From positions 1,540,447 to 1,604,446 of the forward strand of contig OZ253496.1 in assembly GCA_965262115.1 (NCBI GenBank): DNA of 64,000 nucleotides, given 5' to 3'. Both the position numbers and the translations under genes were made by a program. Below are positions 11,175 to 54,525 of the stretch, in pieces; position 1 is the stretch's first letter; each line of letters opens with the position of its first letter. The notes under the pieces are model-generated. The model did no database searches. It saw only the letters and a list, made by a program, of their open reading frames with translations, and was not told the DNA's origin. Source of the DNA: Nitrospinales bacterium. GTDB taxonomy: Bacteria; Nitrospinota; Nitrospinia; Nitrospinales; VA-1.

Positions 11175-12043
11175 CTAGGGATTGTGGGCAAAAGAGCTCT
11201 GCCCCTCCAGGGTTTTCAACTCTTCGATTTCTTGATCTGCAAGAATTTTATAAATATCCAGAACGCTTCGGTGTACATAGGGATCGTCATTTTTCAAGGC
11301 CAGGGCAGACCAGTAGCGGGAAAGGGCCTCCCGGAACATTTTTTTCTTCTTATACAAGTCCCCGAGTTTGACATAAATTTCCAACCGCTTTGGTTCCAGA
11401 ACTGAAACCCTTTCAAAATAGTTCGCGGCCTCAAAATAATCTCCCGACCGTTTATATTCTTCAGCCAGAGCTTCCAGATAAGCAGGGTTCTCTGCTTCCA
11501 GATCAATGGATTGTTTCAGGTGCTCAATGCCTTGAGCAAACTTTTCCCGTTTCAGGTGCAACCGCCCCAGCCGATAGTGGGTGAGAGCATGTCGGCTATC
11601 AATACTCAAGGCCTTGAGATATTTTTGCTCCGCCTCGGCAAACTTTCCTTCCCGCTCCTTGAACTCTCCCAATCAGGATTTTTATTTGCCGCAGTTTCAA
11701 GTTGCCTGAAAGCCTCGTCCCGGTTTCCCTTGTTGTAATGAATTCCCGCCAGGTTAATGCGGCTGAAAGTGTCTTCGGTGATTTTCAGGATATCCCGGTA
11801 AAGGTTTTCGGCCTGGTCGGTCTTGTCCTGGTCCTGATATACAATGGCCAGGTTGTACATAGAGAAGGTGTCGTTGGGGTTTTTCCGGAGTGCCAGGTTG
11901 TACTCTTCAATGGCTTTGGCCAGTTCCTGATTGTCGTAGTGCTCCACGCCTTTGTTGAAGTGGCTGTCGATAGGAGCGGGAACATTGGCGCAGCCGAAGA
12001 AAAATAAAGCCGCTATTATAACCCCGTTGTTTATTTTAATCAT
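11175..12043 (-). pseudogene. TPR-repeat lipoprotein split by a 1-nt frameshift
   Basis: ORFs 11606-12043 (lipobox FFFGC, TPRs) and 11175-11672 (TPRs) overlap. Reading ...AANKNPD then LGEFKEREGKFAEAEQ restores a regular TPR pattern if 1 nt is added near 11666-11672. Confidence 0.55.
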
Positions 12044-13975: not shown

Positions 13976-14793
13976 CAGAGTACAAAGAAAAATAAGGATG
14001 TAAATATCAGATCGGCGATGATCACCAAAATCATCGATACCACCACGGCCGTGCGGGTGTTCTGCCCGACCATTTCCGCTCCGCCTTCAATAACGAAGGC
14101 CATATAACTGCCAACCATGACAATAATGACAGCAAATACTGCACTCTTGATCAGCCCGGTCACGACATCCTTCATCACCATGGCGTCCAGGGAGTTGTTG
14201 ACATAGGTCACCGGGTCGATTCCCAACGTGGTGACGCCAATCAAAAACCCGCCTAATATCCCCATCAAGTCTGCCATGATGGTCAGGCAGGGGAGCATGA
14301 TTAAAAGAGCGATAAACCGGGGAGTGATTAAAAACTTAACGGGATCCAACGCCATGATCTCAAGGGCCAGCACTTCATCGGAAACCTTCATCGTCCCCAT
14401 TTCGGCGGTGAACGCGGCCCCAACCCGTCCAGACATGACCAGTGCCGTCATCAACGGCCCCAGCTCACGCAAAATGGCAACCCCCACCAATGCGCCAACA
14501 AACTCCAAGGCCCCCAACCGGCTCAACTGGTGTGCCGACTGAAACGCAAGAATGACCCCGATCAGAAACGAAACCAGAAAAACAATGGTGGTGGACTTGA
14601 CCCCAACCTCTTCCATCTGTGTCCACACCGGACGCCATTTATTGGGTTTGCCGCGCAAGGGTTCTATGAAGGTGCAATATAAAGTGGAACGGGTGAGATA
14701 ATACAACCCGCTGATTTCCTTGAAAAAATTTTCCAAGACATCAGTGAGCTCGAATCCCCTTCTCCCTATAAACCCGAAAAATGATCTGACCAT
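13975..14793 (-). CDS. mlaE: ABC transporter permease MlaE
   Basis: 272-aa polytopic ORF of the MlaE/Ttg2B type. It overlaps mlaF by 1 nt. Confidence 0.85.
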   Translation of the reverse strand: MVRSFFGFIGRRGFELTDVLENFFKEISGLYYLTRSTLYCTFIEPLRGKPNKWRPVWTQMEEVGVKSTTIVFLVSFLIGVILAFQSAHQLSRLGALEFVGALVGVAILRELGPLMTALVMSGRVGAAFTAEMGTMKVSDEVLALEIMALDPVKFLITPRFIALLIMLPCLTIMADLMGILGGFLIGVTTLGIDPVTYVNNSLDAMVMKDVVTGLIKSAVFAVIIVMVGSYMAFVIEGGAEMVGQNTRTAVVVSMILVIIADLIFTSLFFFVL

Positions 14794-31989: not shown

Positions 31990-32079
31990 TGGAGTGCCTC
32001 CGCCTCCAGGGAAAAATAACCGAAGTGTTGAGGATTAGTCGTTGTAAATGGAGCATTAATTTTATAAAATATACTTGAG

Positions 32080-32997
32080 ATGAAGGCATCCGAAAAAAGA
32101 AAAAAAGTTCATACCGTAAAAGGTGAAAGCCCCTTAATAGATACTCCGTTCACACAGATATACTTGGGAGACTGTGCGGAACAGTTGCAAGATATTGACA
32201 GTAGCTCTATAGATTTAATCGTTACCTCTCCGCCTTATGCCGACCAACGGAGTAAAACCTACGGTGGTATCACGCCAGACAATTATGTTGAATGGTTTTT
32301 GCCTGTTTCCGCAGAGCTATTACGAGTACTAGAGCCTACGGGGACCTTTATCCTCAACATAAAAGAAAAGGTTGTAAATAGTGAGCGCCATACCTATGTT
32401 TTAGAACTCATCCTTGCTATGCGCAAACAGGGTTGGTTGTGGACAGAAGAGTTTATCTGGCATAAGAAAAATTGTTATCCCGGCAAATGGCCCAATCGGT
32501 TTAGAGATTCCTGGGAGCGTTTGTTGCAATTTAACAAAAATCGCAAATTTAAGATGTTTCAAGAAGAAGTCATGGTGCCAACGGGAGATTGGGCCAAGAC
32601 CCGGCTTAAAAAACTGAGCGAGACAGATAAGACCCGTGACGAATCAAAAGTGGGTAGTGGCTTTGGAAAAAATATTTCAAACTGGACGAACAGGGATAAA
32701 GCCTATCCTACAAATGTTTTGCAAATGGCAACGGAATGTAGCAATAAAAGCCACAGTGCCGCTTTTCCACCTACTTTGCCAGAGTGGTTTATCAAGCTTT
32801 TTACTTCGGAAAATGATGTTGTGCTTGACCCTTTTGCGGGTTCAGGAACGACTCTGAAAATTGCCAAGCGAATGAATCGGCATGCGATTGGTATTGAAGT
32901 TAATAAAGACTATTACGATCATATTTTAGAAGATTTGGATGAAAGACAATATTTTTTAATGGAAGAGTCCAAAAAATATGTCGCAAATCGTTCTTGA
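32080..32997 (+). CDS. Beta-class N4/N6 DNA methyltransferase; SPPY motif suggests N4-cytosine
   Basis: 305-aa ORF. Motif IV (IVTSPPYADQR) lies near the N-terminus and motif I (DPFAGSGTT) near the C-terminus, which is the beta permutation. G+C is visibly lower than in the flanks. Confidence 0.8.
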   Translation: MKASEKRKKVHTVKGESPLIDTPFTQIYLGDCAEQLQDIDSSSIDLIVTSPPYADQRSKTYGGITPDNYVEWFLPVSAELLRVLEPTGTFILNIKEKVVNSERHTYVLELILAMRKQGWLWTEEFIWHKKNCYPGKWPNRFRDSWERLLQFNKNRKFKMFQEEVMVPTGDWAKTRLKKLSETDKTRDESKVGSGFGKNISNWTNRDKAYPTNVLQMATECSNKSHSAAFPPTLPEWFIKLFTSENDVVLDPFAGSGTTLKIAKRMNRHAIGIEVNKDYYDHILEDLDERQYFLMEESKKYVANRS

Positions 32998-33727
32998 TGT
33001 TGTCAGAGAATTTGTTAGGGGTAATATTGGTCATTTTCATAAAAAGCGGTTGCAAAATTTGGAGAAGTTGAAGTTAGGCAAAATCCTGAAACGTAAAAAT
33101 CCCTACCTTTTTAAATCTAAAAATATACTTACCTCTGAGGCATTGGTCAAAACTTTGTTGGATGCCCACCTGTCCTCACAAGAAGAAACTATTTTTGGGG
33201 ACTTTCTCGAGGAACTCGCGATATTTATCAATCAACAAGTTTATGCTGGAAAAAAATCTTCTGCAGATGGTATAGATTTAGAGTTTGACCGTGAGGGAAT
33301 TCATTACATTGTTTCCATTAAGTCCGGACCTGATTGGGGAAACAGTAGCCAGATTAAGCGAATGAAAGAGAATTTTAAACAAGCTCAAAAGATTCTTCGT
33401 ACAGGAAACTCTAAACTCCATGTCAGGGCGATAAATGGTTGTTGCTATGGTAGAGGTGGCAGGGAGGATAAGGGGGACTACCATAAATTATGTGGGCAGC
33501 AATTCTGGGCTTTCATTTTCGGCAATGACAATATTTATACGGAAATTATTGAACCTCTTGGATATCAGGCTAAAAAGAGAAATGAGGATTTTGACAAGCA
33601 CTATGCCAGGATTGTAAACCAGTTTTCAAAATCATTTATGAATCATTTTTGTGACCAAGGTGAAATTAATTGGGACAAATTGGTGCAATTTAATTCGGGC
33701 AAAAATAAGGTTTCTTTGAAAATTTAA
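32978..33727 (+). CDS. Putative type II restriction endonuclease, cognate of the adjacent methyltransferase
   Basis: 249-aa ORF overlapping the MTase gene by 20 nt and AT-rich. It has a possible PD-(D/E)xK-like core (ADGIDLEF...YIVSIKSG). Family assignment (possibly TdeIII-like) is from memory only. Confidence 0.5.
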   Translation: MSQIVLDVVREFVRGNIGHFHKKRLQNLEKLKLGKILKRKNPYLFKSKNILTSEALVKTLLDAHLSSQEETIFGDFLEELAIFINQQVYAGKKSSADGIDLEFDREGIHYIVSIKSGPDWGNSSQIKRMKENFKQAQKILRTGNSKLHVRAINGCCYGRGGREDKGDYHKLCGQQFWAFIFGNDNIYTEIIEPLGYQAKKRNEDFDKHYARIVNQFSKSFMNHFCDQGEINWDKLVQFNSGKNKVSLKI

Positions 33728-33865
33728 TTTTTCTGAACACCTTTTTGCCGGGCCGTAGGAATTTATTACTTGTGGTTTTGTGGTAAAATAAAAACGGCCC
33801 TGAACAAAACTGAAAAGAAAATCATTCAAATCCCCCCAAAGTTCTTTTATTTAACGGCCCCATAA

Positions 33866-34684
33866 TTGAGCCAGAGAATCACAGCCTATGAAAAAACGCG
33901 CCCCGACCGGGTGCGTAAGCAGTATAAAGAGCGGGAAGAGTTCACCCTCTATGGCTGGAACTCCTGCATGAGCGCGTTCAAGGCGAGACCGGAAAGTCTC
34001 TTGCGCATGTTCTTCAGCCGCGCCCGTTCCGCTCAGTTGAAAGAGATCAAGGTTTTTTGCGGAGAAAATAAAATTCCCTATCGGCAATTGGATCAGGAAT
34101 CCCTCAATAAAGTTGCGTCTGGTGTTCACCATGAAGGAGTGGTGATGGTTGTCCGGCCCCGCCTGCCGGAATCCGCGCATCGACTGATCCGGGGAACAAT
34201 GCCCGACAGGGGACTGGTCGTGGCGTTAGACGGAATTGATAACCCGCATAACCGGGGAGCAATTTTGCGGACCTGCGCTTTTTTTGGTGTGCGGGGGTTG
34301 CTGGTTCCCGGAGATGGAAAGGTTGTTTCCTCTTCCGCCGCGAGAATGGCGGAAGGAGGACTGGAAGAAGTCCCGATATTTACCAGTAGTGACCTTCCCT
34401 CTGCATTAAGAGATTGCAGGGAGCGAGGCTGGTTTGTGGTGGGTGCGGATGCAAACGCGAAAGAAACCCTTTTCGACGCTACAATCAAGTTTCCTGCTGT
34501 GGTGGTGATGGGAAATGAACAGGAGGGACTTTCGAGTCGAGTCAAACAAAAATGCGATAAGGTGGTCCGGGTTCCCGGAGAGGGTTCCCTGCAATCTCTC
34601 AATGTATCGGTCGCGGCTGGAATCATTCTGGCGGAAATCGGCCGCCGGAGAAAAACCCGCAAAAAAAATATATCTGGTTCATGA
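33866..34684 (+). CDS. SpoU/TrmH-family RNA 2'-O-methyltransferase (RlmB-like)
   Basis: 272-aa ORF with a TTG start and DGIDNPHNRGAILRT, VVMGNEQEGLS and LNVSVAAGI motifs. Confidence 0.8.
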   Translation: MSQRITAYEKTRPDRVRKQYKEREEFTLYGWNSCMSAFKARPESLLRMFFSRARSAQLKEIKVFCGENKIPYRQLDQESLNKVASGVHHEGVVMVVRPRLPESAHRLIRGTMPDRGLVVALDGIDNPHNRGAILRTCAFFGVRGLLVPGDGKVVSSSAARMAEGGLEEVPIFTSSDLPSALRDCRERGWFVVGADANAKETLFDATIKFPAVVVMGNEQEGLSSRVKQKCDKVVRVPGEGSLQSLNVSVAAGIILAEIGRRRKTRKKNISGS

Positions 34685-35151: not shown

Positions 35152-35278
35152 AGACCTTTGCATAACCCCGAGATTCTTCGTCACGTTGTTCCTCAGAATG
35201 ACAAAACAGCCCTTTATTGTCATGCTGAGCTTGTCGAAGCATCTCGCTTTTCTGCTTTATCGACTTACGCAAAGGTCT
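35152..35278. mobile_element. MITE-like element, family A (terminal inverted repeats AGACCTTTGCRTAAG)
   Basis: The left end is AGACCTTTGCATAA and the right end TTACGCAAAGGTCT. It is flanked by the direct repeat CTAAAAGACC (35142-35151 and 35280-35289). The second copy includes the stop codon of the gene at 35280-35660. Confidence 0.75.
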
Positions 35279-35279
35279 C

Positions 35280-35660
35280 CTAAAAGACCAGTTGGTAGCC
35301 TGAAAACAGGCAGATGCCCATTACCAGAAGTCCTGCCAAATAAAATCCTGTCGCGGTTCTCGAAAAGGTATTGGTGTAGGCGTAGCCGGCAGAGAATCCA
35401 TAGAGGATGGTAAACAAAAAAGCATAGCCTTGGTGCCCCTCAACCTCCACAATGGTTCGCAAGTTAATGTCGACAGAGACCATGCCGGAAAAATCGGCGA
35501 CCACAGCGGCTAGAAGGCCCAGGCTCAGATTAAAAGCTCCTGCGGCTTTTAATTTTTCATCATTTTTTTTGTGGGCCAAAAAAAGCAGGGCCAGTCCGGC
35601 AACAAATAAGGCGGGAGAAAAATGGGAAATGAAAGGGTGAAACGATACGGAGCTGATCAT
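35280..35660 (-). CDS. DUF2231-family membrane protein
   Basis: 126-aa ORF with HPFISHFSPALFVAGL and four TM segments. Confidence 0.6.
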   Translation of the reverse strand: MISSVSFHPFISHFSPALFVAGLALLFLAHKKNDEKLKAAGAFNLSLGLLAAVVADFSGMVSVDINLRTIVEVEGHQGYAFLFTILYGFSAGYAYTNTFSRTATGFYLAGLLVMGICLFSGYQLVF

Positions 35661-37297: not shown

Positions 37298-37384
37298 GCC
37301 GAAGTGGCGGAATTGGTAGACGCGCATGATTCAGGTTCATGTGCCCGAAAGGGTGTGGAAGTTCGAGTCTTCTCTTCGGCACCA
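37298..37384 (+). tRNA. tRNA-Leu (anticodon CAG), long variable arm, CCA encoded
   Basis: Acceptor GCCGAAG/CTTCGGC, anticodon stem CATGA/TCATG with loop TTCAGGT, variable arm GCCCGAAAGGGTGT, T arm GGAAG-TTCGAGT-CTTCT. Confidence 0.9.
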
Positions 37385-37539: not shown

Positions 37540-38040
37540 GGGCATCTCAAAAAATTGCTTTTGTACCCCTGTGGGGCATGAAAGCTGATGGGGAATATAA
37601 CAGCCACGAGCGGCCATTATGACAAGGAGACCTTTGCATAAGTCGAAAATCGAGATGCTTCGACATACCCCTCCGGGGCAAGAAGGCAAAGGTCGAGTAT
37701 CACTAGCTCAGCATGACAATACTGGGCCATTTTGTCATGCTGAGGAACAAGGCGACGAAGACGTGACATTTTTCCTTACCCTTCGTGCCCGGCACGGGTA
37801 ATCTCGCTTTGCATAGGCTTGGGGATTTGGGGTTGCCGTCTTTGCGAGGAGGCTTTAGCCGACGCGGCAATCCAGGTTTTGGTTTTTCTCTCGGGGTCAT
37901 GCTGAGCCTGTTGAAGAATCTCGCCTTGCATAGGCCTGGGGATTCTTCACTGCGTTCAGAATGACAAGAAACGCCGGTTTGTCATCCTCAAGGAGCCAAC
38001 GGCGACGAATGATCCGGGGTTACGCAAAGCTCTCTATGAT
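37540..38040. repeat. About 500 bp built only of nested MITE-like and hairpin repeat units
   Basis: Family A terminus GAGACCTTTGCATAAGTCG at 37627, GTCATGCTGAG / CTCAGCATGAC inverted pairs, TACCCC-N3-GGGGCA hairpins, and family B-like termini (GCGAGGAGGC..., ...GGAGCCAACGGCGACGAA). Confidence 0.8.
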
Positions 38041-38118
38041 AAGGGTCTGCGAGTTGCCTTAGAGAAAATTACCGAATAAATAGAGATTTTTTGCAGTTAG
38101 TTCATTCACCAGTCCGGT

Positions 38119-40315: not shown

Positions 40316-41782
40316 GTCAAGTCTTTTGGGCCTGTTGCCCAAACCTTTTGATAGAAGCGTGGGTTTATAAGGATTATAATTTATCTGGCTAGTTTTTGTT
40401 CTTCTACAGTTTTAATCTTTTTTTCCGGGAGTCATTCCCATGATGAAACGCGAAACCCCGTCCCAGAGCGTATTCTTTAACTAGGCCGTGAATCTTGAAG
40501 ATCGGAGTCCTCCAGATCACGAGTTGCGGCAAGTTTCTTCCGTTTTGAACCTGGATTTTGTGTATGAACAAGTAAAGGATAAGTACGGCCACAATGGCAA
40601 CGAATCGGTTCCGCCTCCGGTGATGCTAAAACTGATGTTGCTGCTCATCTTTTACAACGTTCGTTCCGAACGTGAGTTGATGCGTACGCTTCCGTAGCGG
40701 ATGGATTGGCTCTGGTTTCTGGGTTATGGTCTGGACACTGTGATTCCTAATCCCAGCGTATTATCGAAACCAAGGGTTACGAGAAACTTTGTGAGAGACT
40801 GGGCGAACCGGAGGAATCCAATAATCGGCGGGTACGCAGAGAAGTTAATGTTCGTTACCGTTCTACGACCGCTCCGGATGCGGCGATTGTGCCGCGCGGG
40901 GGTTCGCGTTTGCGTTATAAAGTACATCGTTCGGTGGATCCGGCGGCGGAAGTGATCACCACGACTGAGGTGACACGTGGCGATGTAGACGATTCGCATC
41001 GGTTCAGTGCCATGCTGGAAGCGCACCAGGAAAATACCGGGATGTCAGCGAAGACCGCAGTGGCCGACAGTAAATACGGTACGGTGGAAAACTTTCTTGC
41101 CTGCAAAGATATGGGCATTCAACCCCATATGCCCGACCTGAAAAAGAGTCAGGAAACAGACGGCAAACGTCATGGAATATTTTCCAACAGCGCATTTACA
41201 TTCGACCCTGAAAGCGATACCTATATCTGCCCGGTGGGCAAACGCTTGCGGCTGAAGACCTGCCGGTTAAAAGAGCAGCGTATGTATTACGCCGCCAGAG
41301 CAGACGACGGTAATGCCTGCGAACTAAAATCCCAATGCACACGTAGTGCAACCGGACGCACGATCCAACGGGTTGATCGTCAGGACGACCTCGAAGAAAT
41401 GCGCGCAATGGCAAAGACCCCAAAAGGAAAACAAGACCTGAAAACGAGACAGCATCTTATGGAACGGTCATTCGCATATTCGGTGCCCTTGGGATTCAAA
41501 AGGGCACGGTGGCGAAGATTATGGCTGATCCAGATTCAAGAATACCTGACCGCATCCATTCAAAACATCAAACGAATGATCCAACACCTGAAAAAACCGA
41601 TTCACAGTCATGCACTGAAGGTCGTACAACGATTCAAAAACTGCTTGCAGGCTTCAACTTGGGGAGGAATGAATCTGGGTTTTGGGATTTCAATTTAGAA
41701 AAGAAAATTCGTAAGAAATACACAAAATTAATATCAGCAACCCTTCACGGCAACCCTTTGGGCAACAGGCCCTTTTCTTGAC
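40316..41782 (+). mobile_element. Decayed IS1182/IS5-family insertion sequence; the transposase is a pseudogene
   Basis: Terminal IRs GTCAAGTCTTTTGGGCCTGTTGCCCAAA (40316-40343) and TTTGGGCAACAGGCCCTTTTCTTGAC (41757-41782). The transposase reading frame has in-frame TAG codons at 40482 and 40698 and a frame change with apparent internal deletion after ...SVLSKPR. The DDE C-terminal part is in ORF 40889-41698. Confidence 0.8.
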
Positions 41783-41810
41783 TACAAGAGGGTAAAAGAA
41801 GCGTGGCAAT

Positions 41811-42258
41811 CCAACCCTCCCCCAGCCCCTCCCTATGAAGGGAGGGGAGGCAGATGTTTTAAAATCTTTTCAAAAACTCCATCCAGGTTTTCATAAACAT
41901 CCTGATTGGTAAATCGCAGAAACCGTATCCCCATATCTTCGATGGTTTTCTGCCGGATTTCATCCGATTGGATCGCCGTTCCACTGAAATGAGAGTCTCC
42001 ATCGATTTCAATCGCGAGTTTTGCCGATGGGCAATAAAAATCCAGAATGTATCGGTCGACACTGTATTGTCGCCCAAACTTATATCCACCGGCCTGTCTG
42101 TTTCGCAAAAACTGCCACAAAGCCACTTCCGCTAGCGGCATTTCTTTGCGCAAGGATTCTCTTTTGGTTTTTTCTGTGTTTCTGTTGAAAATTTTTACCA
42201 TAGCTTTCTACATTCCAAGCCCCCCTCCCTTCATAGGGAGGGGCTGGGGGAGGGTTGG
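41811..42258. mobile_element. 448-bp cassette: DUF559 gene bracketed by perfect 37-bp inverted repeats
   Basis: CCAACCCTCCCCCAGCCCCTCCCTATGAAGGGAGGGG (41811-41847) and its exact reverse complement (42222-42258). Confidence 0.75.
41833..42201 (-). CDS. DUF559 (Vsr-like endonuclease fold) protein, copy 1
   Basis: 122-aa ORF (LWQFLRNRQ...YILDFYCPSAKLAIEIDGDSH...RFLRFTNQDV). The stop codon and last codons (LPPLPS) lie inside the left IR. Confidence 0.8.
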   Translation of the reverse strand: MVKIFNRNTEKTKRESLRKEMPLAEVALWQFLRNRQAGGYKFGRQYSVDRYILDFYCPSAKLAIEIDGDSHFSGTAIQSDEIRQKTIEDMGIRFLRFTNQDVYENLDGVFEKILKHLPPLPS

Positions 42259-46290: not shown

Positions 46291-47073
46291 ATGGCTGAAG
46301 ACTCATCCCAAACAAAGAGACTTTTAAAGGGCCGGGTTTTCCTACTGGCAGTATTTCTCGTGATTCTAACCGGGAAAACCTCCTTTGCCGGGCCGGCCGA
46401 GATCGATAAACAGTATCAGCAAGCCAAAACCTTGAAAGAGTTTGAACGCATCGCCGAAGAAATCCGGAAAACCCTCGAAAAAGAACCGGGCAGCCCCCAA
46501 TGGCAATGGCGACTGGCTCGATCCCATTACGCCATCGCCAAACGAACGGAGGACGAAGACATCGCAAACCAGCAATACGACCTGTGCATCGAGCACAGTA
46601 GCCGGACTCTGGAAATGCAACCGGACTCGGCCATCGGTTATTTTTTCCGTGCCATATGCCGAGGCAAACAGGGGGAGATGAAAGACATGTGGTCCAGCCT
46701 GGGAATCATCGATCCTTTTGAAGAAGATATGAAAAAAGCGTTAGAGCTGGATCCGGCTATCCAGAACGGCGGCCCGAACCGCGCGCTGGGCAAGTTTTAT
46801 TTGGAGTTGCCCTTTTTTCTAGGTGGCAGCACAGATCAATCGATTTATCACCTTAAAGAAGCAGTTCGCCTGAGTCCTGATTACGCAGAAAACCACCTTG
46901 GGCTGGCCCAGGCTTATTATGCTAAAAATAATTTCACCTCCGCGCGAAAATCGCTTTCCACCCTACTTAGTCTGACCGATAATGTTGCGGACAATGAGGA
47001 CCTTTTAAAACTCAGGACAAAAGGCCAGGAGTTGATGAAAAAGCTGACCACTGATTATTCCCACACCTTATGA
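46291..47073 (+). CDS. TPR-like periplasmic protein (TatT-like, low confidence)
   Basis: 260-aa ORF with a signal sequence and helical repeats (NRALGKFYLELPFFLGGSTDQSIYHLKEAV). Confidence 0.5.
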   Translation: MAEDSSQTKRLLKGRVFLLAVFLVILTGKTSFAGPAEIDKQYQQAKTLKEFERIAEEIRKTLEKEPGSPQWQWRLARSHYAIAKRTEDEDIANQQYDLCIEHSSRTLEMQPDSAIGYFFRAICRGKQGEMKDMWSSLGIIDPFEEDMKKALELDPAIQNGGPNRALGKFYLELPFFLGGSTDQSIYHLKEAVRLSPDYAENHLGLAQAYYAKNNFTSARKSLSTLLSLTDNVADNEDLLKLRTKGQELMKKLTTDYSHTL

Positions 47074-48770
47074 TTAAAGAAATTAGAATCCGAAATTTTG
47101 CCACTATAGAAAATCTTGCGGTGAACTTTGAGAAAGGATTGAACGTGCTGACCGGTGAAACCGGCGCGGGTAAATCCATCATCATCGACGCGCTGAATCT
47201 CCTGCTAGGAGGTAGGGCCGATACCGATTCCATCCGTTCCGGAGAAACCACCGCTTTTGTGGAAGCAGCCTTCGAAGTCACCGACCCCATGACTCTCGAC
47301 TTGATTTTGGAATTCGGCATCGAAATAGAGGATGGAGAACTTCTTGTCAAACGCCAGATTTCCAACGCTGGGAAAAATCGCTGCCTACTCAATGATAGTC
47401 CGGTCACGGTTTCCACCCTGGCAAAAATTGGTGACCGCCTGGTCGATCTGCATGGGCAACACGATCACCAGACCCTGCTTCATCCTGAAGTCCACGTCGA
47501 TCTTTTAGACCTGTACGGCAAATGCAGGACACTCCGCGATGAGTTCTCCGGGAAGTTCTCGGACCACCAGACTGGGACGAAAAAATTGCAGTCCATGAAA
47601 ATGGATGAGCAGGAGCTGGTACAAAAACAGGAGTTCCTGAACTTTCAACTCAACGAGATTGATCAGGCCCAGCTCTCGGAGGAAGAAGAGGAAGAAATCA
47701 AGGCGGAGCGCAATAAACTGAAACACGCCGGACAAATTCGCGAAGGCCTGCAAAAAAGCCAGTCGCTGTTGACCGATGAAAGCGGCTCCATACTGGAAAA
47801 CCTGGGGCAGGTTTTGAAAGAGCTGGAATCGGTTCTCGACATCGATCCCAGCATGAAAGAAACGGTTGAACGGTCCCGTTCCGCTTTCTATGAACTGGAA
47901 GAGGTGGTGGAGTCTTTACGAAACTATGACCGATCTTTGGAGTTCAATCCGAACAGACTGGAAGAAATTGAAGACCGGCTCGCCGAGATAAGCGGACTAA
48001 AACGAAAATACGGCAACGACATCGCAGAAATTTTAAAGCGCCGGGAACAGATCGCCCAGGAGTTGGAGCAGTTGGCCTCCAATGATGAAAACATGAAAGC
48101 CCTGGAAGAAGAACTGAAGAAAAAAGAAAAGGCGCTTGCCGAACTCAGCATCCGCCTGGCTGAAAAAAGAGAAGCCGCCGCCAAAAACCTTACCAACAGT
48201 GTTGAGAAGGAGCTGAAAGAACTGAGCATGGGCAGCGTCCAGCTTGGCGTGCGTTTTGATTATCCGACCGACCCTGAGGGATTCATCCTGTTCCGCAAAG
48301 AAAAAATGAAAGCCACACCAACCGGATTGGGCACACTGGAATTTTTGTTTTCGTCGAATCCGGGTGAAGAACTGCGCCCCCTGGCTAAAATCGCCTCAGG
48401 CGGTGAATTATCGCGGGTGATGCTGGCTTTGAAATCTATCTTGAACGACCAGGACACCATCCCGGTGATGATCTTCGATGAAGTGGATACCGGCATCGGT
48501 GGAAGAGTGGCAGAAAAGGTGGGAACCAAATTACAAAAAGTCGCCAGTACCAAACAGGTTTTTTGCATCACTCACCTGCCACAAATTGCCGGGATGGCTT
48601 CTTTCCATTACCGGGTAGAAAAAGAAGTAAAAGGGAAACGCACACGCTCCACCATCCGCCAACTGGAACATGAAGAACGCGTTGAAGAACTGGCCCGCAT
48701 GTCGAGCGGAGAAAACATCACCAACGCCTCCCTCAATCACGCCCGCGAAATGCTTCGGCCCACCCGCTAG
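47070..48770 (+). CDS. recN: DNA repair protein RecN
   Basis: 566-aa SMC-like ORF with Walker A GETGAGKS, a long coiled coil and the signature ASGGELSR. Confidence 0.95.
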   Translation: MIKEIRIRNFATIENLAVNFEKGLNVLTGETGAGKSIIIDALNLLLGGRADTDSIRSGETTAFVEAAFEVTDPMTLDLILEFGIEIEDGELLVKRQISNAGKNRCLLNDSPVTVSTLAKIGDRLVDLHGQHDHQTLLHPEVHVDLLDLYGKCRTLRDEFSGKFSDHQTGTKKLQSMKMDEQELVQKQEFLNFQLNEIDQAQLSEEEEEEIKAERNKLKHAGQIREGLQKSQSLLTDESGSILENLGQVLKELESVLDIDPSMKETVERSRSAFYELEEVVESLRNYDRSLEFNPNRLEEIEDRLAEISGLKRKYGNDIAEILKRREQIAQELEQLASNDENMKALEEELKKKEKALAELSIRLAEKREAAAKNLTNSVEKELKELSMGSVQLGVRFDYPTDPEGFILFRKEKMKATPTGLGTLEFLFSSNPGEELRPLAKIASGGELSRVMLALKSILNDQDTIPVMIFDEVDTGIGGRVAEKVGTKLQKVASTKQVFCITHLPQIAGMASFHYRVEKEVKGKRTRSTIRQLEHEERVEELARMSSGENITNASLNHAREMLRPTR

Positions 48771-48774
48771 GCGC

Positions 48775-49490
48775 GGGGCCGACTGCAATAGCTTTCCCTG
48801 GCAAGCAATAGGTTAGCCCGGCCTGATGAGCCGCCGAGGGCAAAAACTTCTCCCCTGACAGGTGGACGTGATATTTTTCCTAAATTTTCGTACCCCGAAG
48901 GGATATTGAGGGGGGTTGATTTTTTAACTCCCTCTTTCTCAAACTCGAACAATAGGAAGACGTTTTGTTCGACGGGTTGGGGTGATTGACCACAAGAAGG
49001 GGGTTTGTCGTCATTGCGAACGAAGTGAAGCAATCCAGTTGCTAGTACCCCAAAACCGTATGAAACACAGCACCAATTCCGACACACCAGTAAATGTCGG
49101 CACCAATAAGGTTCCAAACTGCGGCTGATTTCTCTAAAGGTCATTGCATCACCGCCTTAACCACAAAGAAAAAGAACGCGAGCATGGTGAGGACGGTGTT
49201 CGCCACCGCCGACCAGATCATGATTGTGTGCGCAATATTCCCATCACTAACTTCATGCCCCGTAGGGGGGGTATAATAGTTTTTCCATATCACTTGCCAT
49301 TCTGAGTTTGTAGGTCTGTCATGCTGAGCTAGTGATATTTGATCTTTGAATTCTTGCCCCGGAGGGGTATGTCGAAGCATCTCGATTCTTCGATTTTTCG
49401 ACTTATGCAAAGGGCTCCCTGTCAAGGGAGGGGTGAATGATCTCTTTACAACCTTGGTAACACTGAACTATTTCACAAGGCTCAAGGCCA
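48775..49490. repeat. About 700 bp tract of hairpin and MITE-like repeats, possibly with a gene remnant
   Basis: GGGTTGGGGTGATTGACC (48974-48991), GTCGTCATTGCGAACGAAG...CAATCC, CTTCATGCCCCGTAGGGGGGGTA, GTCATGCTGAGC, and the family A terminus ACTTATGCAAAGGGCTC (about 49401-49417). Confidence 0.75.
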
Positions 49491-49491
49491 G

Positions 49492-49939
49492 CCAACCCTC
49501 CCCCAGCCCCTCCCTATGAAGGGAGGGGAGGCAGATGTTTTAAAATCCTTTCGTAAACTCCATTCAGGTTTTCATAAACATCCTGGTTGGTAAAACGCAG
49601 AAACCGTATTCCCATATTTTCGATAACCTTCTGTCGGACCTGGTCCGATTGTGCAGCCTCTTCGCTAAAATGAGAATCCCCATCGATTTCAATCGCGAGT
49701 TTTGCCGATGGGCAATAAAAATCCAGAATGTATCGATCAACACTGTGTTGCCGCCGAAACTTGTGTCCATTTGCCTGCCTGTTTCGCAAAAACTGCCACA
49801 AAGCCACTTCCGCTGGGGGCATTTCTTTGCGCAAGGACTTTCTCCTGGTTTTTTCTGTATTTTTATTAAAAATTTTTACCATTGTTTTTTTGTTTTTCAT
49901 ATCCCCTCCCTTCATATGGAGGGGTTTGGGGAGGGCTGG
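49492..49939. mobile_element. Second DUF559 cassette with degenerate right inverted repeat
   Basis: The left IR (49492-49528) is identical to copy 1. The right IR (49903-49939) differs at 4 of 37 positions. The length is the same, 448 bp. Confidence 0.7.
49514..49882 (-). CDS. DUF559 (Vsr-like endonuclease fold) protein, copy 2
   Basis: 122 aa from the ATG at 49882. It differs from copy 1 at 18 of 122 residues by manual alignment. The tracked 253-aa ORF is an upstream read-through extension. Confidence 0.75.
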   Translation of the reverse strand: MVKIFNKNTEKTRRKSLRKEMPPAEVALWQFLRNRQANGHKFRRQHSVDRYILDFYCPSAKLAIEIDGDSHFSEEAAQSDQVRQKVIENMGIRFLRFTNQDVYENLNGVYERILKHLPPLPS

Positions 49940-50062
49940 ATTAAAGCAATGCATTATCCTGAACTTCCCCTGGTTGAGTGGACACATTGAAAGTGTGGAT
50001 AATACATTTTTGGAGGTGTGTCTATGGTGAGCAAGCGAAGGAGTTTTAGTAAGGAGGTGGGA

Positions 50063-50251
50063 ATGCAGTACCAGCTCAAAATTGTTTTCGTGGATAATCA
50101 GGAGCTGGTTCTCGATACGACCCAAAAGCATGGTTTCAGCGATGACCTGGAACTGTTCGAGGTGACCACCTCGGAGGAAATTTTTGTGGTTCCCCTCAAA
50201 CAGAGCAAATATATCTCCCGCGACGCCGGAATCTTTCAAATAGGAGTCTAA
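50063..50251 (+). CDS. Small hypothetical protein (62 aa)
   Basis: Strong SD TAAGGAGGTG 5 nt before the ATG at 50063 (MQYQLKIVFVDNQELVLD...). No family was recognised. Confidence 0.45.
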   Translation: MQYQLKIVFVDNQELVLDTTQKHGFSDDLELFEVTTSEEIFVVPLKQSKYISRDAGIFQIGV

Positions 50252-50318
50252 CTTCCCCGCATTAGAGATTGACACGAGCAGATGACTTAGCTAAAATCCG
50301 TTGCATGTTTATTAAAAC

Positions 50319-50329
50319 GGGGGGGGGGG
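50319..50329. repeat. Homopolymer G11
   Basis: Counted directly. It lies between an ATG (50305) and the first in-frame start (GTG 50333) of the autotransporter ORF. Confidence 0.95.
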
Positions 50330-50332
50330 ATA

Positions 50333-53123
50333 GTGGTTACTTTGAAAAGCCGTGCTGTATTGAGTGCTGTGCAGTCTGCGTCCAGTTCTGGTTCGTCGGG
50401 TGAGGGGCACGCCCTATGCGCTGTGAGAAACCCCGCACTACCGAAGAAAGTCTTCCGCCATTTCCTGGCTTCATGCCCGTCCCTGGTCCGGTTATGCACA
50501 GTCGCCATCCTTGTCCTGCTGTTCATGGCCCCCGTTGCCAGCGCCCAAGTCACCGCCAATGCCGGGGACGATCAGATCGTCGCAGAGGGCGCGTTCGTCA
50601 CGCTTGACGGCGGTGACAGTTCCGGCCCCGGCAGTGCGCTGACCTATGAATGGAGGCAGACCGCCGGTACTGAGACCGCTCTCCCAGTCGTGCTAGACGA
50701 CATTGCGGCAATCTCACCAACCTTCACTGCGGGTACCGCCGTGGAACTGGAATTTGAATTGACCGTGAGTGATGGTACCTCCTCGGATACCTACGAGGTG
50801 GTGGTCAGTGTAGTTCCGAACACTGTCCTGAGTTTCGGTACGGCCACAATCTCCGACCGGACTTTTATATTTACACAGAATACACTGGTTGGCGAAATGA
50901 CCGCCCTGCACGTAGCCAGTGGCGGCAACGTGCCCCTGACCTACAGCATAATAGAGACGCTGCCAGCGGGGCTAAGCTTTAATCCTGTCACCCGCACAAT
51001 CAGCGGCACCCCGACCGCCGTTAGCCAGAGAGCTATCTATACATACGAGGTCAGCGACGCGGATGCTGACACCGTTAACAACAGTGTTTTCATCACCGTT
51101 AATCCCGACCCCGCCATCATAGTCAACCAGGCTCCGACCGCCGTGGTCGTGCAGCTTGCGGATCAGACCCCAAGCCCGTTGATAACGGAGGACATAGTCA
51201 ACCCCCCCCCATCACTGGCGTTGACGGCGGCGTTCTGATCACGCTTGACGGCAGCCGCAGTTTTGATCCCGACGGCGATACCCTGGCCTACCTCTGGACC
51301 CAGGTTCTTGGTCAGGATATTCTGGCCGAAGGAGCCTTCTCCTCTGAAGAAATAAGCCCTCAAATCACCATTCCGGCCGACTTCCCTGTCGGAACGGAGC
51401 TGGAGTTCAGATTGACTGTGACCGATAGTCCGCAGCCGGGCCAGCCAAGCCTATTCACCATCGACACCGTGACCATCACCGTCGTCACGGACGGGACTGC
51501 TCCGGTCATTACCCTGAACGGTATGGCGACGGTCTCCATCGATCTGGGTTCTACCTATGCGGACGACGGGGCAAGCGCCACAGACAACATTGACGGGGAT
51601 ATTTCCAGCTCGATCACAACGACCATTACCGACAGCAGCGGTGCTGTGATCGCTGCGGTCGATACCGGTACGGTTGACGTCTACACCATCACCTACACGG
51701 TCTCCGATGCGGCGGACAACCCGGCCGTTGCCGTTATTCGCACCATCAGCGTCACCGCTGATGTGACGAGGTTTGCCGACCTCAATAACGCGGTCCTGCC
51801 GGAAGTGGCGCGTGCCATAGCAGACCAGACGGTGGGTGCGATAACAGAACGTATTGGTCAGGCCAGGAATGGTACGACCCGTTCTGTGTCACCATCGCCG
51901 GGCAGTCCACATTGACCGGGGCGGCATCTGCCCACGGGCAGGCCATAGCCGATGGCACGCTGAGTCTGAAGGATGTACTGGGTAACTCCGACTTTGTACT
52001 GCCGCTGGATGATATGGGCGGCATGGACAACGGGATGCTCTCCTCCCTGACCTTATGGGGCGGGGGCGGCTACCGCAGCTTCGAAAGTTCCGGCGGGAGC
52101 GTGAACTTCGACGGCGACCTGTTCAGCGCCCATCTGGGACTGGACGCCCGACCGCGCGACGATCTGCTGATCGGTCTGGCGGCGTCCTGGAGCCAGAGCG
52201 ATCTTGACTACAGAGGAGGCCTCGACCTGAACGGCGAGCACAAGCTGGACCTCACCAGCGTCCACCCCTATGTGAGCTGGGAAGTATTGGCCGGACAACT
52301 GGACCTGTGGGCCACTGCGGGCTACGGCTGGGGTGACCTTGAGATCGCCAATGACGGGCTAGACCGTGTATCGAGTGATGTCGAGACGCGGACTGTGAGT
52401 GTGGGCGGTGATTATCAGTTGCCGCAGATAGGATCAACCACGTTCCGGCTCAAGGGTTCAGCCTTGCTGACCGAGCTGGAAGTGGATGGCAGCGATGATA
52501 TAGAAGCGCTGGATGTGGAGGCCAGCCTGTTTCGGATGGTCCTGGAAGGGGCCCATAAGCACATGTTGTCTGACGGGGCTTATGTGGAGCCGAGCCTGGA
52601 GGCTGGAGTGCGGTATGACGGCGGCGACGGCGAAACCGGTTTCGGGGCCGAGCTGGGTGCCGGTTTCCGTTACACCGATCCGACCGTCGGCCTGACTCTG
52701 GAAGGCAGGGCGCGGACTCTGGTGGGACGGGACAATTATGAGGAATGGGGCGTTTCCGGCCTGATTCTTCTGGAGCAGGGCCGAAACGGGCGGGGACTGT
52801 CGTTCAGTCTGAGTCCCGGCTACGGCAGTACAGACAGCGGCACGCAAAAAGTATGGCAGGAGGGTCTGCGTGACGAGATCAGCCGGGATTACGGCGTGCG
52901 GTTGGACACCAGTCTTGGTTACGGGCTGACCGCTCCCGGCGGACGGGGACTGCTGACTCCCTACAGCGAGATGACCTTCGGCGGCTCTTCCAGGAGCTAC
53001 CGCCTGGGGATGAGATGGGAACTTGATGCGTTGTTTGACCTGAACCTGACCGGTGAACGCAGTGAAAGCAACAGCAACACCACCGATCACGCCATCATGC
53101 TGAAGGGCGATATCCGGTTTTAA
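50333..53123 (+). pseudogene. Autotransporter (type Va) adhesin-like gene broken into three frames
   Basis: The signal peptide ends ...LLFMAPVASA. The passenger has PKD-like (LDGGDSSGPGSALTYEW; LDGSRSFDPDGDTLAYLW), putative-Ig (LPAGLSFNPVTRTISGTP) and DUF5011/HYR-like (APVITLNG...ATDNIDGDIS) modules. The C-terminal ~400 aa is a beta-barrel domain ending in F. The frame changes at the C9 run (51202-51210) and near 51885-51888. Confidence 0.75.
51202..51210. repeat. Homopolymer C9 inside the autotransporter coding sequence
   Basis: Counted directly. C10 would join frame 2 (...IVNPPP) to frame 1 (ITGVDGGVLITLDGSRSFDPDGD...). Confidence 0.95.
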
Positions 53124-53220
53124 CCCGGTTGTGGTCATTGAGTGAAGCGCGGCTCAAGCCGCACTTCCGGCAACCCTGCCAGTCCTGCCGTCTGCAACGG
53201 TCTTGTGTGGGCGTGGCCCG

Positions 53221-53760
53221 TTAATAATGGATCATGGAGTGAACGGGGGTGTTTTTGAGTTTTTCCCGGCCTTTCAGGAAGTCTAGTTCGATCAAGAAGG
53301 CGGCTTCCACAACTGTTACATTGCTAAAATTTTTCTGGATCAAATCGAGGGTGGCGGCCAGGGTTCCTCCGGTGGCCAGCACATCATCAATGACGAGGAT
53401 ATTTTGTCCTGGCCGGAATGCATCCTGATGAACTTCGACGGTATCGGTTCCGTATTCCAGGGAATAGGTTTCCTGAAAAGTTTTGTAAGGCAGTTTGCCC
53501 GGTTTTCGAACCATGACCACTCCTGTACCCAGCGCATAGGCCAGGGCTGAGGCAAAGATAAACCCGCGCGCTTCCACGCCGACCACCACGTCTACCCGCT
53601 TATCTGCGTAACGATCCTTCAGGGAATTAATGGTTTTCTGGAAGGCGACAGGGTCGCCCAGGAGCGGCGTGATATCTTTAAAGATGATTCCCTCTTTGGG
53701 GAAGTCTGGAACATCGCGGATGATTTGTTTCACAGCGGTCTCACCTTGCTTAAAATTCAT
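53221..53760 (-). CDS. apt: Adenine phosphoribosyltransferase
   Basis: 179-aa ORF (FPKEGIIFKDITPLL..., VLVIDDVLATGGT). Confidence 0.9.
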   Translation of the reverse strand: MNFKQGETAVKQIIRDVPDFPKEGIIFKDITPLLGDPVAFQKTINSLKDRYADKRVDVVVGVEARGFIFASALAYALGTGVVMVRKPGKLPYKTFQETYSLEYGTDTVEVHQDAFRPGQNILVIDDVLATGGTLAATLDLIQKNFSNVTVVEAAFLIELDFLKGREKLKNTPVHSMIHY

Positions 53761-53817
53761 ATTTGCTCTGAGTTGTGACCCTGGTTTTTTATCAAAGATC
53801 TGGATAAAAAGAAAACC

Positions 53818-54525
53818 TTATCTTTTGAGAGGCAGATATTTTACAGGATCTTTGGGATGCGTGTCGTTTCGCACTTCAAAATGGAGATGGGATCCGGTGG
53901 ACCGGCCGGTGCTTCCCATCAGAGATATTTTTTGTCCCTGCTTGACCCGGCTTCCTTTTTTAGCGATGAGTTTTGAGTTATGCGCATAAAGGGTGGTCAG
54001 ATGATGTCTGTGTTTGATGATGACCATTTTCCCATAGCCGGTGGGCCCCCAGCCACTAAACACCACCTCACCTGCGGCAGCGGCATGAACGGGAGTTCCT
54101 TTGGGTGCGGCAATATCGATTCCTTCATGCCTGCGCCCGTTTCGCATCCCGAATCGAGACGTCAGAGTTCCCTTCGTCGGCCAGACGAGAAAACCTTTGC
54201 GGGGTTTGACGGTGGGCGATGATTTCTTTTTTGCGGTACGGGATACAGGTTTATCGGGGACCTTTAAAACCCGGCGGGCTCCCGGTATCCATAACCGGAT
54301 TCCTTCCCGGAGTTTTGCGGGATCTCTTATATGGTTGGCGCGCCGCAGAACTTCCACACCCAGATCATAGGTTTTGGCAATGCGGTACAGGGTCTGGCCT
54401 TTTTGTACCGTGTGGTACACCCCTTCCCCCTTTTCGGGCCAGGGATCGAATTGGAAACTCTGGCATCCCGTAAGGAATAAAATGATAATAAAAAAAACTG
54501 ATTTGTAATAATGATGGCAGGACAT
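53818..54525 (-). CDS. LysM-domain M23 metallopeptidase lipoprotein (NlpD/murein endopeptidase-like)
   Basis: 235-aa ORF with lipobox LFLTGC, LysM (YHTVQKGQTLYRIAKTYD) and M23 motifs HEGIDIAAPKGTPV and GSTGRSTGSHLHFEV. Confidence 0.85.
   Translation of the reverse strand: MSCHHYYKSVFFIIILFLTGCQSFQFDPWPEKGEGVYHTVQKGQTLYRIAKTYDLGVEVLRRANHIRDPAKLREGIRLWIPGARRVLKVPDKPVSRTAKKKSSPTVKPRKGFLVWPTKGTLTSRFGMRNGRRHEGIDIAAPKGTPVHAAAAGEVVFSGWGPTGYGKMVIIKHRHHLTTLYAHNSKLIAKKGSRVKQGQKISLMGSTGRSTGSHLHFEVRNDTHPKDPVKYLPLKR

Follow-up and report, generated by a model that had tools for sequence, protein, structure and literature searches.

A probable pseudogene for a putative autotransporter adhesin, of likely foreign origin and bearing homopolymeric tracts, in a Nitrospina genome

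Within a 64,000-nt stretch of a Nitrospinales genome (assembly GCA_965262115.1, contig OZ253496.1, positions 1,540,447 to 1,604,446; hereafter the window, whose own numbering is used for all of its coordinates), a G+C-rich island at 50290–53220 carries one long gene for a putative autotransporter adhesin that is read in three different frames. On balance this gene is probably an ancient import that was later relocated, that bears tracts of the contingency-locus type and that is by now most likely a pseudogene; the narrower statement, that the gene in the window is a pseudogene, we hold with good confidence. The adhesin role is suggested by its domains. Throughout, relatives and homologue loci are labelled L0xx and database proteins P0xxx.

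The autotransporter gene and its lesions

Conceptual repair of the gene, by which one C is added to a run of nine and one TG is taken out, yields a single open reading frame (ORF) of ~899 aa from a GTG at 50423. Its modules follow the order signal peptide, K319L-like PKD, He_PIG (the Pfam ‘putative Ig’ family), PKD, Bact_surface_Ig-like (DUF5011) and the autotransporter beta-domain PF03797, which scores 47.2 and 49.3 bits against a cut-off of 26. As assembled, these modules are distributed over three pieces on the forward strand. Piece 1 (50333–51210, frame 2) contains an N-terminal extension, the signal peptide, the first PKD module (~50561–50812) and He_PIG (~50912–51100); piece 2 (51211 to ~51886, frame 1) contains the second PKD module (~51238–51462), the DUF5011 module (~51508–51753) and the start of a linker helix; and piece 3 (~51889–53123, frame 3) contains the remainder of the translocator, including the beta-barrel, up to the stop codon. 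The probable signal peptide (50423–50545, +), identified by inspection, begins at the GTG with the basic n-region MRNPALPKKVFRHF, continues through the hydrophobic core LVRLCTVAILVLLFMAPV and ends in LLFMAPVASA, with a cleavage site between ASA and Q. Without the extra TG, the conserved translocator cassette (51772–53123, +) spans 449 aa and comprises a long helix, a segment of ~60 aa (…SDFVLPL…), the beta-barrel and a C-terminal MLKGDIRF. The protein ends ...HAIMLKGDIRF, directly followed by the stop, and the terminal F is kept both in a five-sequence translocator alignment and in a 70-sequence consensus. The gene has a PF03797 match above the gathering score, a signal peptide by inspection and an aromatic-ended beta-signal, as expected for type Va autotransporters, but the union of passenger and barrel on one polypeptide fails in the three-frame assembly and is regained only after repair. 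An earlier reading of the letters alone (the sequence-only reading) had described the split over three frames at matching coordinates, the signal peptide, the PKD-like, putative-Ig and DUF5011-like passenger modules and the barrel ending in MLKGDIRF, all of which agree with the Pfam results or, for the signal peptide, with our inspection.

Three features that the same reading had not mentioned are the C run at the first shift, a G run at the 5′ end and a TG duplication at the second shift. Frameshift 1 most probably lies in the nine-base C run (C9, 51202–51210, +), the sole slippage-prone site between the NQAPTA motif and LITLDGS; a tenth C restores ...VNPPPITGVDGGVLITLDGSRSFDPDGD, and the PKD motif …ITGVDGGVLITLDGSRSFDPDGD is regained. 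Frameshift 2 is a 2-bp TG duplication (TGTG, 51885–51888, +) outside any homopolymer. At this site the window reads CGTTCTG[TG]TCACC where L081 reads CGTTCTGTCGCC, and in a nucleotide alignment with L081, L083, L082 and L084 all four homologues read CGTTCTGTC… without the extra TG; the tblastn match is likewise broken at 51885/51888. Relative to P0001–P0005, L081 and L082, the gene is disrupted by one missing base in C9 and by the 2-bp insertion. An eleven-base G run (G11, 50319–50329, +) lies between a candidate promoter and the signal-peptide coding region, 22 nt 3′ of the promoter, and apart from G11 and C9 the 64 kb contain no G/C run of at least 8 bases. The candidate promoter is sigma-70-like (50269–50297, +; TTGACA, 17 nt, TAAAAT), matching 11 of 12 consensus positions, and was the best site within the 5.2 kb scanned, judged on consensus match alone. 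Just downstream, a short ORF with an ATG start (50305–50403, +) crosses G11 one base off the autotransporter frame. Its ATG at 50305 lies 28 nt from the GTG at 50333, such that a run of G10 or G13 would fuse the short ORF with the autotransporter frame.

Real decay is favoured because the TG duplication is not a homopolymer error, the surroundings are clean, a public gene call has the same break, a paralogue in the same genome is broken, and a related copy needs two shifts. Specifically, database protein P0128 (403 aa), which sits on a 2,684,264-bp contig, is identical to the window ORF 51912–53123 and shares the break. Compared with L045 and L001 over ~5 kb, the assembly shows few indels, all at or next to gene boundaries, and no coding frameshifts. 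The same genome carries a paralogue (P0007+P0129; locus L083, 6001–10171) that is 89% identical in nucleotides to the window cassette and whose barrel is broken by a +1 T insertion, outside any homopolymer; on the L083 contig a 33-bp deletion between GTGGA repeats is present as well. In the L081 copy (the P0001 gene, 7691–8030), the N-terminus needs two shifts, located near a T6 run and at a C4 run; with these two frame changes, an ATG that has a good Shine-Dalgarno sequence comes into frame with the signal peptide and the passenger. Gene calling started past the second shift, which is why the signal peptide is missing from database protein P0001. Exact-protein look-ups of the window apt and recN products, P0128 and P0129 found none on record and so yielded no independent assembly of the locus for comparison. 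As encoded, pieces 1 and 2 would give a secreted passenger with no anchor, and piece 3 a barrel with no signal peptide.

Homopolymeric tracts and the translocator across the family

We surveyed the 5′ ends of 11 family genes, 5.5 kb of sequence in all, for runs of at least nine G/C. Runs of 9–30 G/C were present in 8 of the 11 genes, and the eight runs in 5.5 kb compare with 0.03 expected (Poisson P ~1e-17), the background being a single run over 147 kb of flanking sequence and four over 794 kb of recN loci from Nitrospinota. Taken by itself, the window gene has two runs where 0.015 would be expected (P ~1e-4). In addition to G11 in the window gene, the runs are C16 in L081, G10 in L082 (in frame, within the N-terminal extension), C9 in L084 (5932–5940), C30 in L096 (4900–4940), C15 in L095, and G12 and G9 at two of the three tandem genes of L085. 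The C9 of L084 and the C30 of L096 belong to two paralogues of one Rhodobacterales genome whose upstream regions are near-identical. The AGGAGG-ATG that precedes C15 in L095 is one base off the signal-peptide frame, with no alternative start. A scan of metagenomes with the barrel profile, which adds little, gave 9 distant loci (34–49% identity), none with a G/C run of at least nine. With long homopolymers in the 5′ leader (G11) and in the ORF (C9) of a putative surface-protein gene, and comparable runs in its relatives, the tracts have the anatomy of slipped-strand contingency loci, and phase switching itself is a possible consequence. The literature searched contained no reports on autotransporters, phase variation or contingency loci in Nitrospina or sponge symbionts.

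Some of these loci have further local features. The C30 of L096 is followed by an 11-bp insertion, TTTGTAACGCC, that repeats an upstream motif, and IS66 elements flank the L096 and L084 genes. L085 (6001–16029) is an array of three tandem autotransporter genes in a genome of ~52% G+C; its G12 lies upstream of gene 2 and its G9 inside the signal-peptide coding region of gene 3, and the matching site upstream of gene 1 is an interrupted GGGGGTGGG.

The translocator is only partly covered by its Pfam family: PF03797 aligns to residues 97–292 of the 449-aa unit (positions 6–212 of 255 in the HMM), and the last 157 aa have no Pfam match. An AlphaFold2 model built on a 70-sequence alignment (pLDDT 82.6, pTM 0.75) predicts a helix at residues 2–32, the conserved 60-aa segment between helix and strand 1 (…GQAIADGTLSLKD.LGNSDFVLPL…) and then 18 strands (93–447); a first run on a 5-sequence alignment reached pLDDT 40 and was discarded. 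Matches to solved structures in Foldseek were weak, the best overall being 22-strand TonB-dependent receptors (TM 0.45) and the best autotransporter match the BrkA beta-domain (TM 0.52–0.55 normalised to BrkA, 18% identity); searching PDB sequences with the barrel profile gave no meaningful match. The predicted barrel would be unusual in having 18 strands rather than 12, and the model thus speaks against the 12 strands of a classical type Va barrel, in which a single pore-spanning helix directly precedes strand 1. The unit is widespread, in that an exhaustive HMMER search returned 2257 cluster representatives (50% identity) at E<=1e-30; nearly all of the best 150 matches align over almost the whole 449 aa, and among these the unit lies at the C-terminus of proteins of up to ~7,800 aa.

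Composition, insertion site and origin

G+C content is 59.7% at 50290–53220 and 48.5% in the rest of the window. Non-overlapping 2.9-kb segments average 48.6% (sd 1.7, maximum 52.5%), placing the island ~6 sd out, and at 500-nt resolution G+C climbs from 45–50% to 56–63% across ~50250–53250 and then drops back. The G+C-rich island that the sequence-only reading had judged by eye, from about 50290 to the apt stop codon, was therefore real, with a computed value far outside the range of the window. Its extent matches the autotransporter gene alone and not the whole of the 4.45-kb insert described below, the left part of which (48771–50289) has only 45–47% G+C. At first, second and third codon positions, the G+C fractions (GC1/GC2/GC3) of the repaired gene are 0.61/0.49/0.70, compared with 0.55/0.38/0.54 (sd 0.04/0.04/0.06) for the 40 other window ORFs of at least 200 aa, and its GC3 tops that of every other window ORF (maximum 0.65). 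Because GC1, GC2 and GC3 are all raised, the excess stems partly from amino-acid composition and partly from synonymous sites.

The gene sits between recN (47070–48770, +; Pfam SMC_N/AAA_23), the left housekeeping flank, and apt (53221–53760, −; adenine phosphoribosyltransferase; NCBIfam NF002636 at 239 bits, cut-off 125, and TIGR01090 at 221 bits, cut-off 186), the right flank, which is convergent with it; genes for an M23/LysM peptidase and an FG-GAP protein are also among the neighbours. RecN is 96% identical in amino acids to that of OZ252246 (L045), 95% to that of Nitrospina sp. LS_NOB (L001) and 90–92% to those of three further metagenome-assembled genomes (MAGs), and on these identities we assign the host to Nitrospina. 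Collinearity with L045 and L001 (94–97% nt) runs to 48760–48831, within ~60 nt past the recN stop, after which both relatives continue with gpmA, a TlyA-like gene, xseA and folD, with differing small inserts that in L001 include an HNH-like ORF. L005 carries an AIPR-like gene, a duplicated recN 3′ end and a restriction-modification pair after recN, and other relatives have different DNA there. Only L008 (83% RecN identity) keeps apt and the M23 and FG-GAP genes beside recN; it has just ~480 bp between recN and apt, and its homology to the window restarts at 53222, exactly at the apt stop. For this reason we define 48771–53220 (4.45 kb) as an insert relative to L008, composed of a spacer, a DUF559 copy, orf77, the autotransporter gene and a tail. 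None of the relatives has an intact orthologue at this locus, and the atypical composition expected of a genomic island is accompanied by absence from the syntenic site. In L005 (11813–14149) the AIPR-like ORF of 639 aa inserted after recN is followed by the duplicated recN 3′ end (14026–14149), which is 87% identical in nucleotides to window 48636–48757. With the HNH-like ORF of L001 at the same place, the recN 3′ end is a recurrent insertion site.

Sister Nitrospinales genomes carry the family at unrelated loci: the L081 gene lies between pgk and an FGE-sulfatase gene, the L082 gene after a ferredoxin-type gene, and the L083 gene between hemC and nadC. All three are G+C-rich relative to their flanks (57.5 vs 44% for L081, 58 vs 46% for L082, and 61% vs mixed flanks averaging 53% for L083). 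Nucleotide homology to the window gene is confined to 51765–53123, the linker and barrel, stopping exactly at the stop codon, with cassette identities of 87% to L081, 87–89% to L083, 81–83% to L082 and 73–74% to L084. Passenger architectures differ wholly among the homologues, being built from two PKD modules, many He_PIG repeats or a mixture; because homology stops at linker and barrel while the passengers differ, we regard the translocator as a conserved cassette with exchangeable passengers. Blocks of 94–99% identity between the two copies of the window’s genome suggest gene conversion between them. The closest copies outside Nitrospina, P0003–P0005, are 66–67% identical in amino acids and 73–74% in nucleotides in the translocator; they come from a genome of 61–63% G+C, and the aminotransferase next to them is 71–78% identical to Rhodobacterales proteins. 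Named family members belong to Gamma- and Alphaproteobacteria, among them a Cycloclasticus that is the symbiont of a poecilosclerid sponge, and the other sampled family loci have 61–69% G+C. For comparison, RecN shares 38–43% identity with Bacillota hits and no more than 47% with the most distant hits labelled Nitrospinota or Nitrospirae. The identity of the barrel set against that of RecN, the raised GC3 and the lack of the gene at the syntenic junction together support import from high-G+C Proteobacteria with incomplete amelioration. A tblastn search of a plasmid collection with the barrel gave no match and no sign of a plasmid vector. Horizontal acquisition, as the sequence-only reading had proposed, thus stands as regards foreign origin, to which composition and the L008 junction both point, but not as a recent entry into Nitrospina, and the lineage-specific feature of the window copy is its position.

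Smaller features of the insert lie on either side of the gene. The spacer (48771–49491; 45–50% G+C) has no recognisable gene: its ORFs lack Pfam or NCBIfam matches, no Rfam family reaches its gathering score, and it has no blastn match of at least 100 bp among the 14 Nitrospinales and autotransporter loci compared. It is followed by a DUF559 cassette (49492–49939) whose gene (49514–49900, −; Pfam DUF559, 3.9e-31) encodes a Vsr-like endonuclease fold and is flanked by 38-nt inverted repeats (49492–49529 and 49902–49939, 89% complementary; CCCCTCCC…GGGAGGGG hairpins). The DUF559 cassette that the earlier reading had placed next to the island is therefore present, although the repeat tract it had also reported could not be found, as Tandem Repeats Finder gave two trivial 8-mers and the repeats that do exist are the inverted ones around DUF559. 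A second copy of the DUF559 gene lies at 41772–42240, with 85% amino-acid identity between the two; that copy is orthologous to those of L045 and L001, and the one at 49492–49939 is specific to the insert. The hypothetical 77-aa orf77 (50018–50251, +) has no family match, and ~100 nt over its 3′ end, together with the −35 box, are kept upstream of the L081 autotransporter gene, where the window and L081 are roughly 75% identical (alignment A2, columns ~214–330). A G+C-rich tail (53124–53220) leads up to the apt stop codon and contains a hairpin at ~53144–53167; we rejected it as a terminator, given a fold z-score of −0.4 against shuffled sequence and no T-run. A tRNA target for the insertion was likewise rejected, the nearest tRNA lying at 37298 and none within 13 kb, as was a structured RNA in 48000–54000, where the one candidate, an archaeal snoRNA family, scored 20 bits, short of its gathering score of 39, and was put down to chance.

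Further afield, a low-G+C block at 32023–33729 (39.8% over 32001–34000) with two ORFs is 82–84% identical in nucleotides to the methylase/restriction-enzyme pair directly 3′ of recN in L005 (14231–15938) and to part of L002 (11863–12948), and these matches indicate a restriction-modification island at different sites in sister genomes. A ~130-bp repeat occurs in opposite orientations at 35152–35281 and 37941–38045, on either side of a tRNA-Leu (37298–37384), and L045 has three related copies, one of them directly after recN at 11840–11963.

Alternatives, comparisons and meaning

In the history that we favour, a family found mostly in high-G+C Proteobacteria, which keeps its 450-aa translocator cassette while swapping passengers, would have passed horizontally into an ancestor of this Nitrospina clade, an origin that would explain the G+C excess, and would since have come to occupy a different locus in each genome; the window copy would have landed in the 4.45-kb insert beside the 3′ end of recN, where relatives differ from one another. 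In an intact gene the signal peptide would send the protein through Sec, the C-terminal helix-plus-barrel unit would insert into the outer membrane, and the PKD, He_PIG, PKD and DUF5011 modules would be displayed on the cell surface, steps that are drawn from established type V biology. The G/C tracts at the 5′ end and inside the passenger could switch expression by slipped-strand mispairing. The window copy would be off and could not simply revert, with C9 one base short, the ATG out of frame across G11, and the TG duplication separating passenger from barrel.

Several observations weigh against parts of this history. No integrase or transposase was detected in 48771–53220 by ORF, Pfam and NCBIfam scans, and inspection of the borders for att-like repeats, a check that the earlier reading had suggested, turned up just 13–22-nt matches at 75–88% identity, which is chance level and which we rejected; there is accordingly no integrase, att or tRNA signature to account for the arrival of the insert. 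The direction of transfer follows solely from composition and from where the family is commonest, and GC2 is 0.11 higher than in the other ORFs, such that part of the G+C excess stems from amino-acid composition. Barrel divergence among the Nitrospina copies (81–89% nt) is about that of housekeeping DNA (85–91%), which implies that the family was in this clade before these species split and that the transfer is old. As for the tracts, the GTG at 50333 and later in-frame starts may initiate at any length of G11, and the 5′ tract may therefore not gate translation in the window gene; the lengths of C9 and G11, taken from assembled sequence and not from reads, are each uncertain by one base either way; and no difference in tract length was seen between the 99%-identical Nitrospina alleles P0002 and P0121.

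With regard to origin, it is unlikely that the gene is native to Nitrospina and acquired its G+C content from a Gly/Ala/Thr/Asp-rich barrel and Ig-like modules, helped by G+C-biased gene conversion, with no transfer at all. The rise of GC1 and GC2 along with GC3, a barrel divergence that follows species divergence and the mosaic 94–99% blocks between the two same-genome copies would fit such a history, but it leaves the GC3 of 0.70 above that of all other window ORFs and the gene missing from the syntenic junction of L008; moreover, the barrel is 67% identical in amino acids to a Rhodobacterales copy where RecN reaches only 38–43% to Bacillota and does not exceed 47% to the most distant hits labelled Nitrospinota or Nitrospirae, and most sampled family loci lie in genomes of 61–69% G+C. 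With regard to the state of the gene, a live contingency locus in a reversible OFF phase, in which a subpopulation regains the gene by slippage at G11 and C9 and the TG unit can be lost as well, strikes us as improbable. Both of the window’s long G/C runs do fall in this gene, the tract association is strong across the family, and the three pieces have accumulated no stop codons or large deletions; however, (TG)2 reverts far more rarely than a homopolymer of 9–11 bases by slipped-strand mispairing, three independent off-states would require a triple reversion, and the paralogue elsewhere in this genome has a frameshift too, in sequence that is not a repeat. Quite improbable, too, is an intact cellular gene whose apparent frameshifts stem from mistakes of assembly or consensus calling, chiefly at a homopolymer. 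Shift 1 indeed needs only a single extra C in a nine-base run, and the contig names of related records bear coverage and circularity tags, which we take to mark long-read metagenome assemblies, weakest at long homopolymers; nevertheless, the dinucleotide duplication at shift 2, the identical break in P0128, the syntenic 5 kb free of coding frameshifts against two relatives, and the independent non-homopolymer lesions of the paralogue and the L081 copy all speak for sequence that is truly broken. Both shifts are formally −1, the same change being needed at either junction, and homopolymers can cause RNA polymerase slippage, so that transcriptional slippage or −1 ribosomal frameshifting might restore the frame in expression; yet the second site has neither a slippery heptamer nor a homopolymer and the homologues are single-frame at both positions, which makes recoding scarcely credible and led us to reject programmed frameshifting. 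A decayed copy of an anciently imported gene is the account that we retain.

By analogy, the window gene may be likened to type V autotransporter adhesins with switching based on simple sequence repeats, as in Neisseria. The phase-variable autotransporters NalP and AutA of Neisseria meningitidis have homopolymeric tracts in the coding region, and the window gene shares with them a type V surface protein and a poly-G/C run near the 5′ end or in the ORF, where a one-base change flips the frame. In contrast to Neisseria, which is a pathogen, the Nitrospinota host oxidises nitrite as a chemolithoautotroph, switching is presumed, the position of the tract varies across the family (5′ leader, N-terminal extension, signal peptide or passenger), and the window copy has an additional lesion outside any repeat. 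Bordetella autotransporter pseudogenes such as bapC are disrupted at poly-C or poly-G runs, which offers a parallel for decay of an autotransporter gene by homopolymer frameshift, in that case in a host-associated lineage; here, however, phylum and passenger differ, and two paralogues of the same genome are broken, partly outside repeats. The translocator resembles type Va beta-domains (BrkA, 3qq2; EspP, 3slj; EstA, 3kvn) in its PF03797 match, in a helix N-terminal to the barrel and in a C-terminal aromatic residue, but is larger, at 449 aa against roughly 280–310, and its model has 18 predicted strands and the 60-aa segment between helix and strand 1. Glass-sponge MAGs, including a Nitrospinota MAG, are reported to encode cadherin, fn3, ankyrin and leucine-rich repeat proteins (PMC12426252), and LS_NOB comes from the glass sponge Lophophysema eversa (PMC10839748, ref. 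14). Like such sponge-symbiont surface proteins, the window gene has repeated Ig-like adhesion modules and occurs among relatives of sponge-derived genomes (LS_NOB, RecN 95%). Those surveys, however, describe no autotransporter anchoring, homopolymer tracts or pseudogenisation, and a sponge association of the window’s own genome would be suggested by its relatives.

On its own, a frameshifted imported adhesin gene is routine. What goes beyond an otherwise largely ordinary find is the family-wide tract association and the enlarged translocator: G/C runs at the 5′ end are tied to an adhesin family in at least two phyla, a contingency-locus signature known from pathogens, and the 449-aa translocator, predicted to have 18 strands, is common (2257 representatives) while only partly covered by Pfam, so that generic annotation may be concealing a large and so far unstudied branch of type V-like secretion. 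That both copies in this genome are broken bears on whether the lineage is giving up a surface-interaction function. We speculate, tentatively and with more doubt than conviction, that homopolymer-switched adhesins form a toolkit exchanged horizontally across several phyla, including Nitrospina and Rhodobacterales, that combines an enlarged, internally plugged translocator of ~18 strands with interchangeable Ig-like passengers of up to ~7,000 aa, in bacteria that may be associated with sponges. If so, the broken copies in this genome would record a recent loss of host-interaction function.

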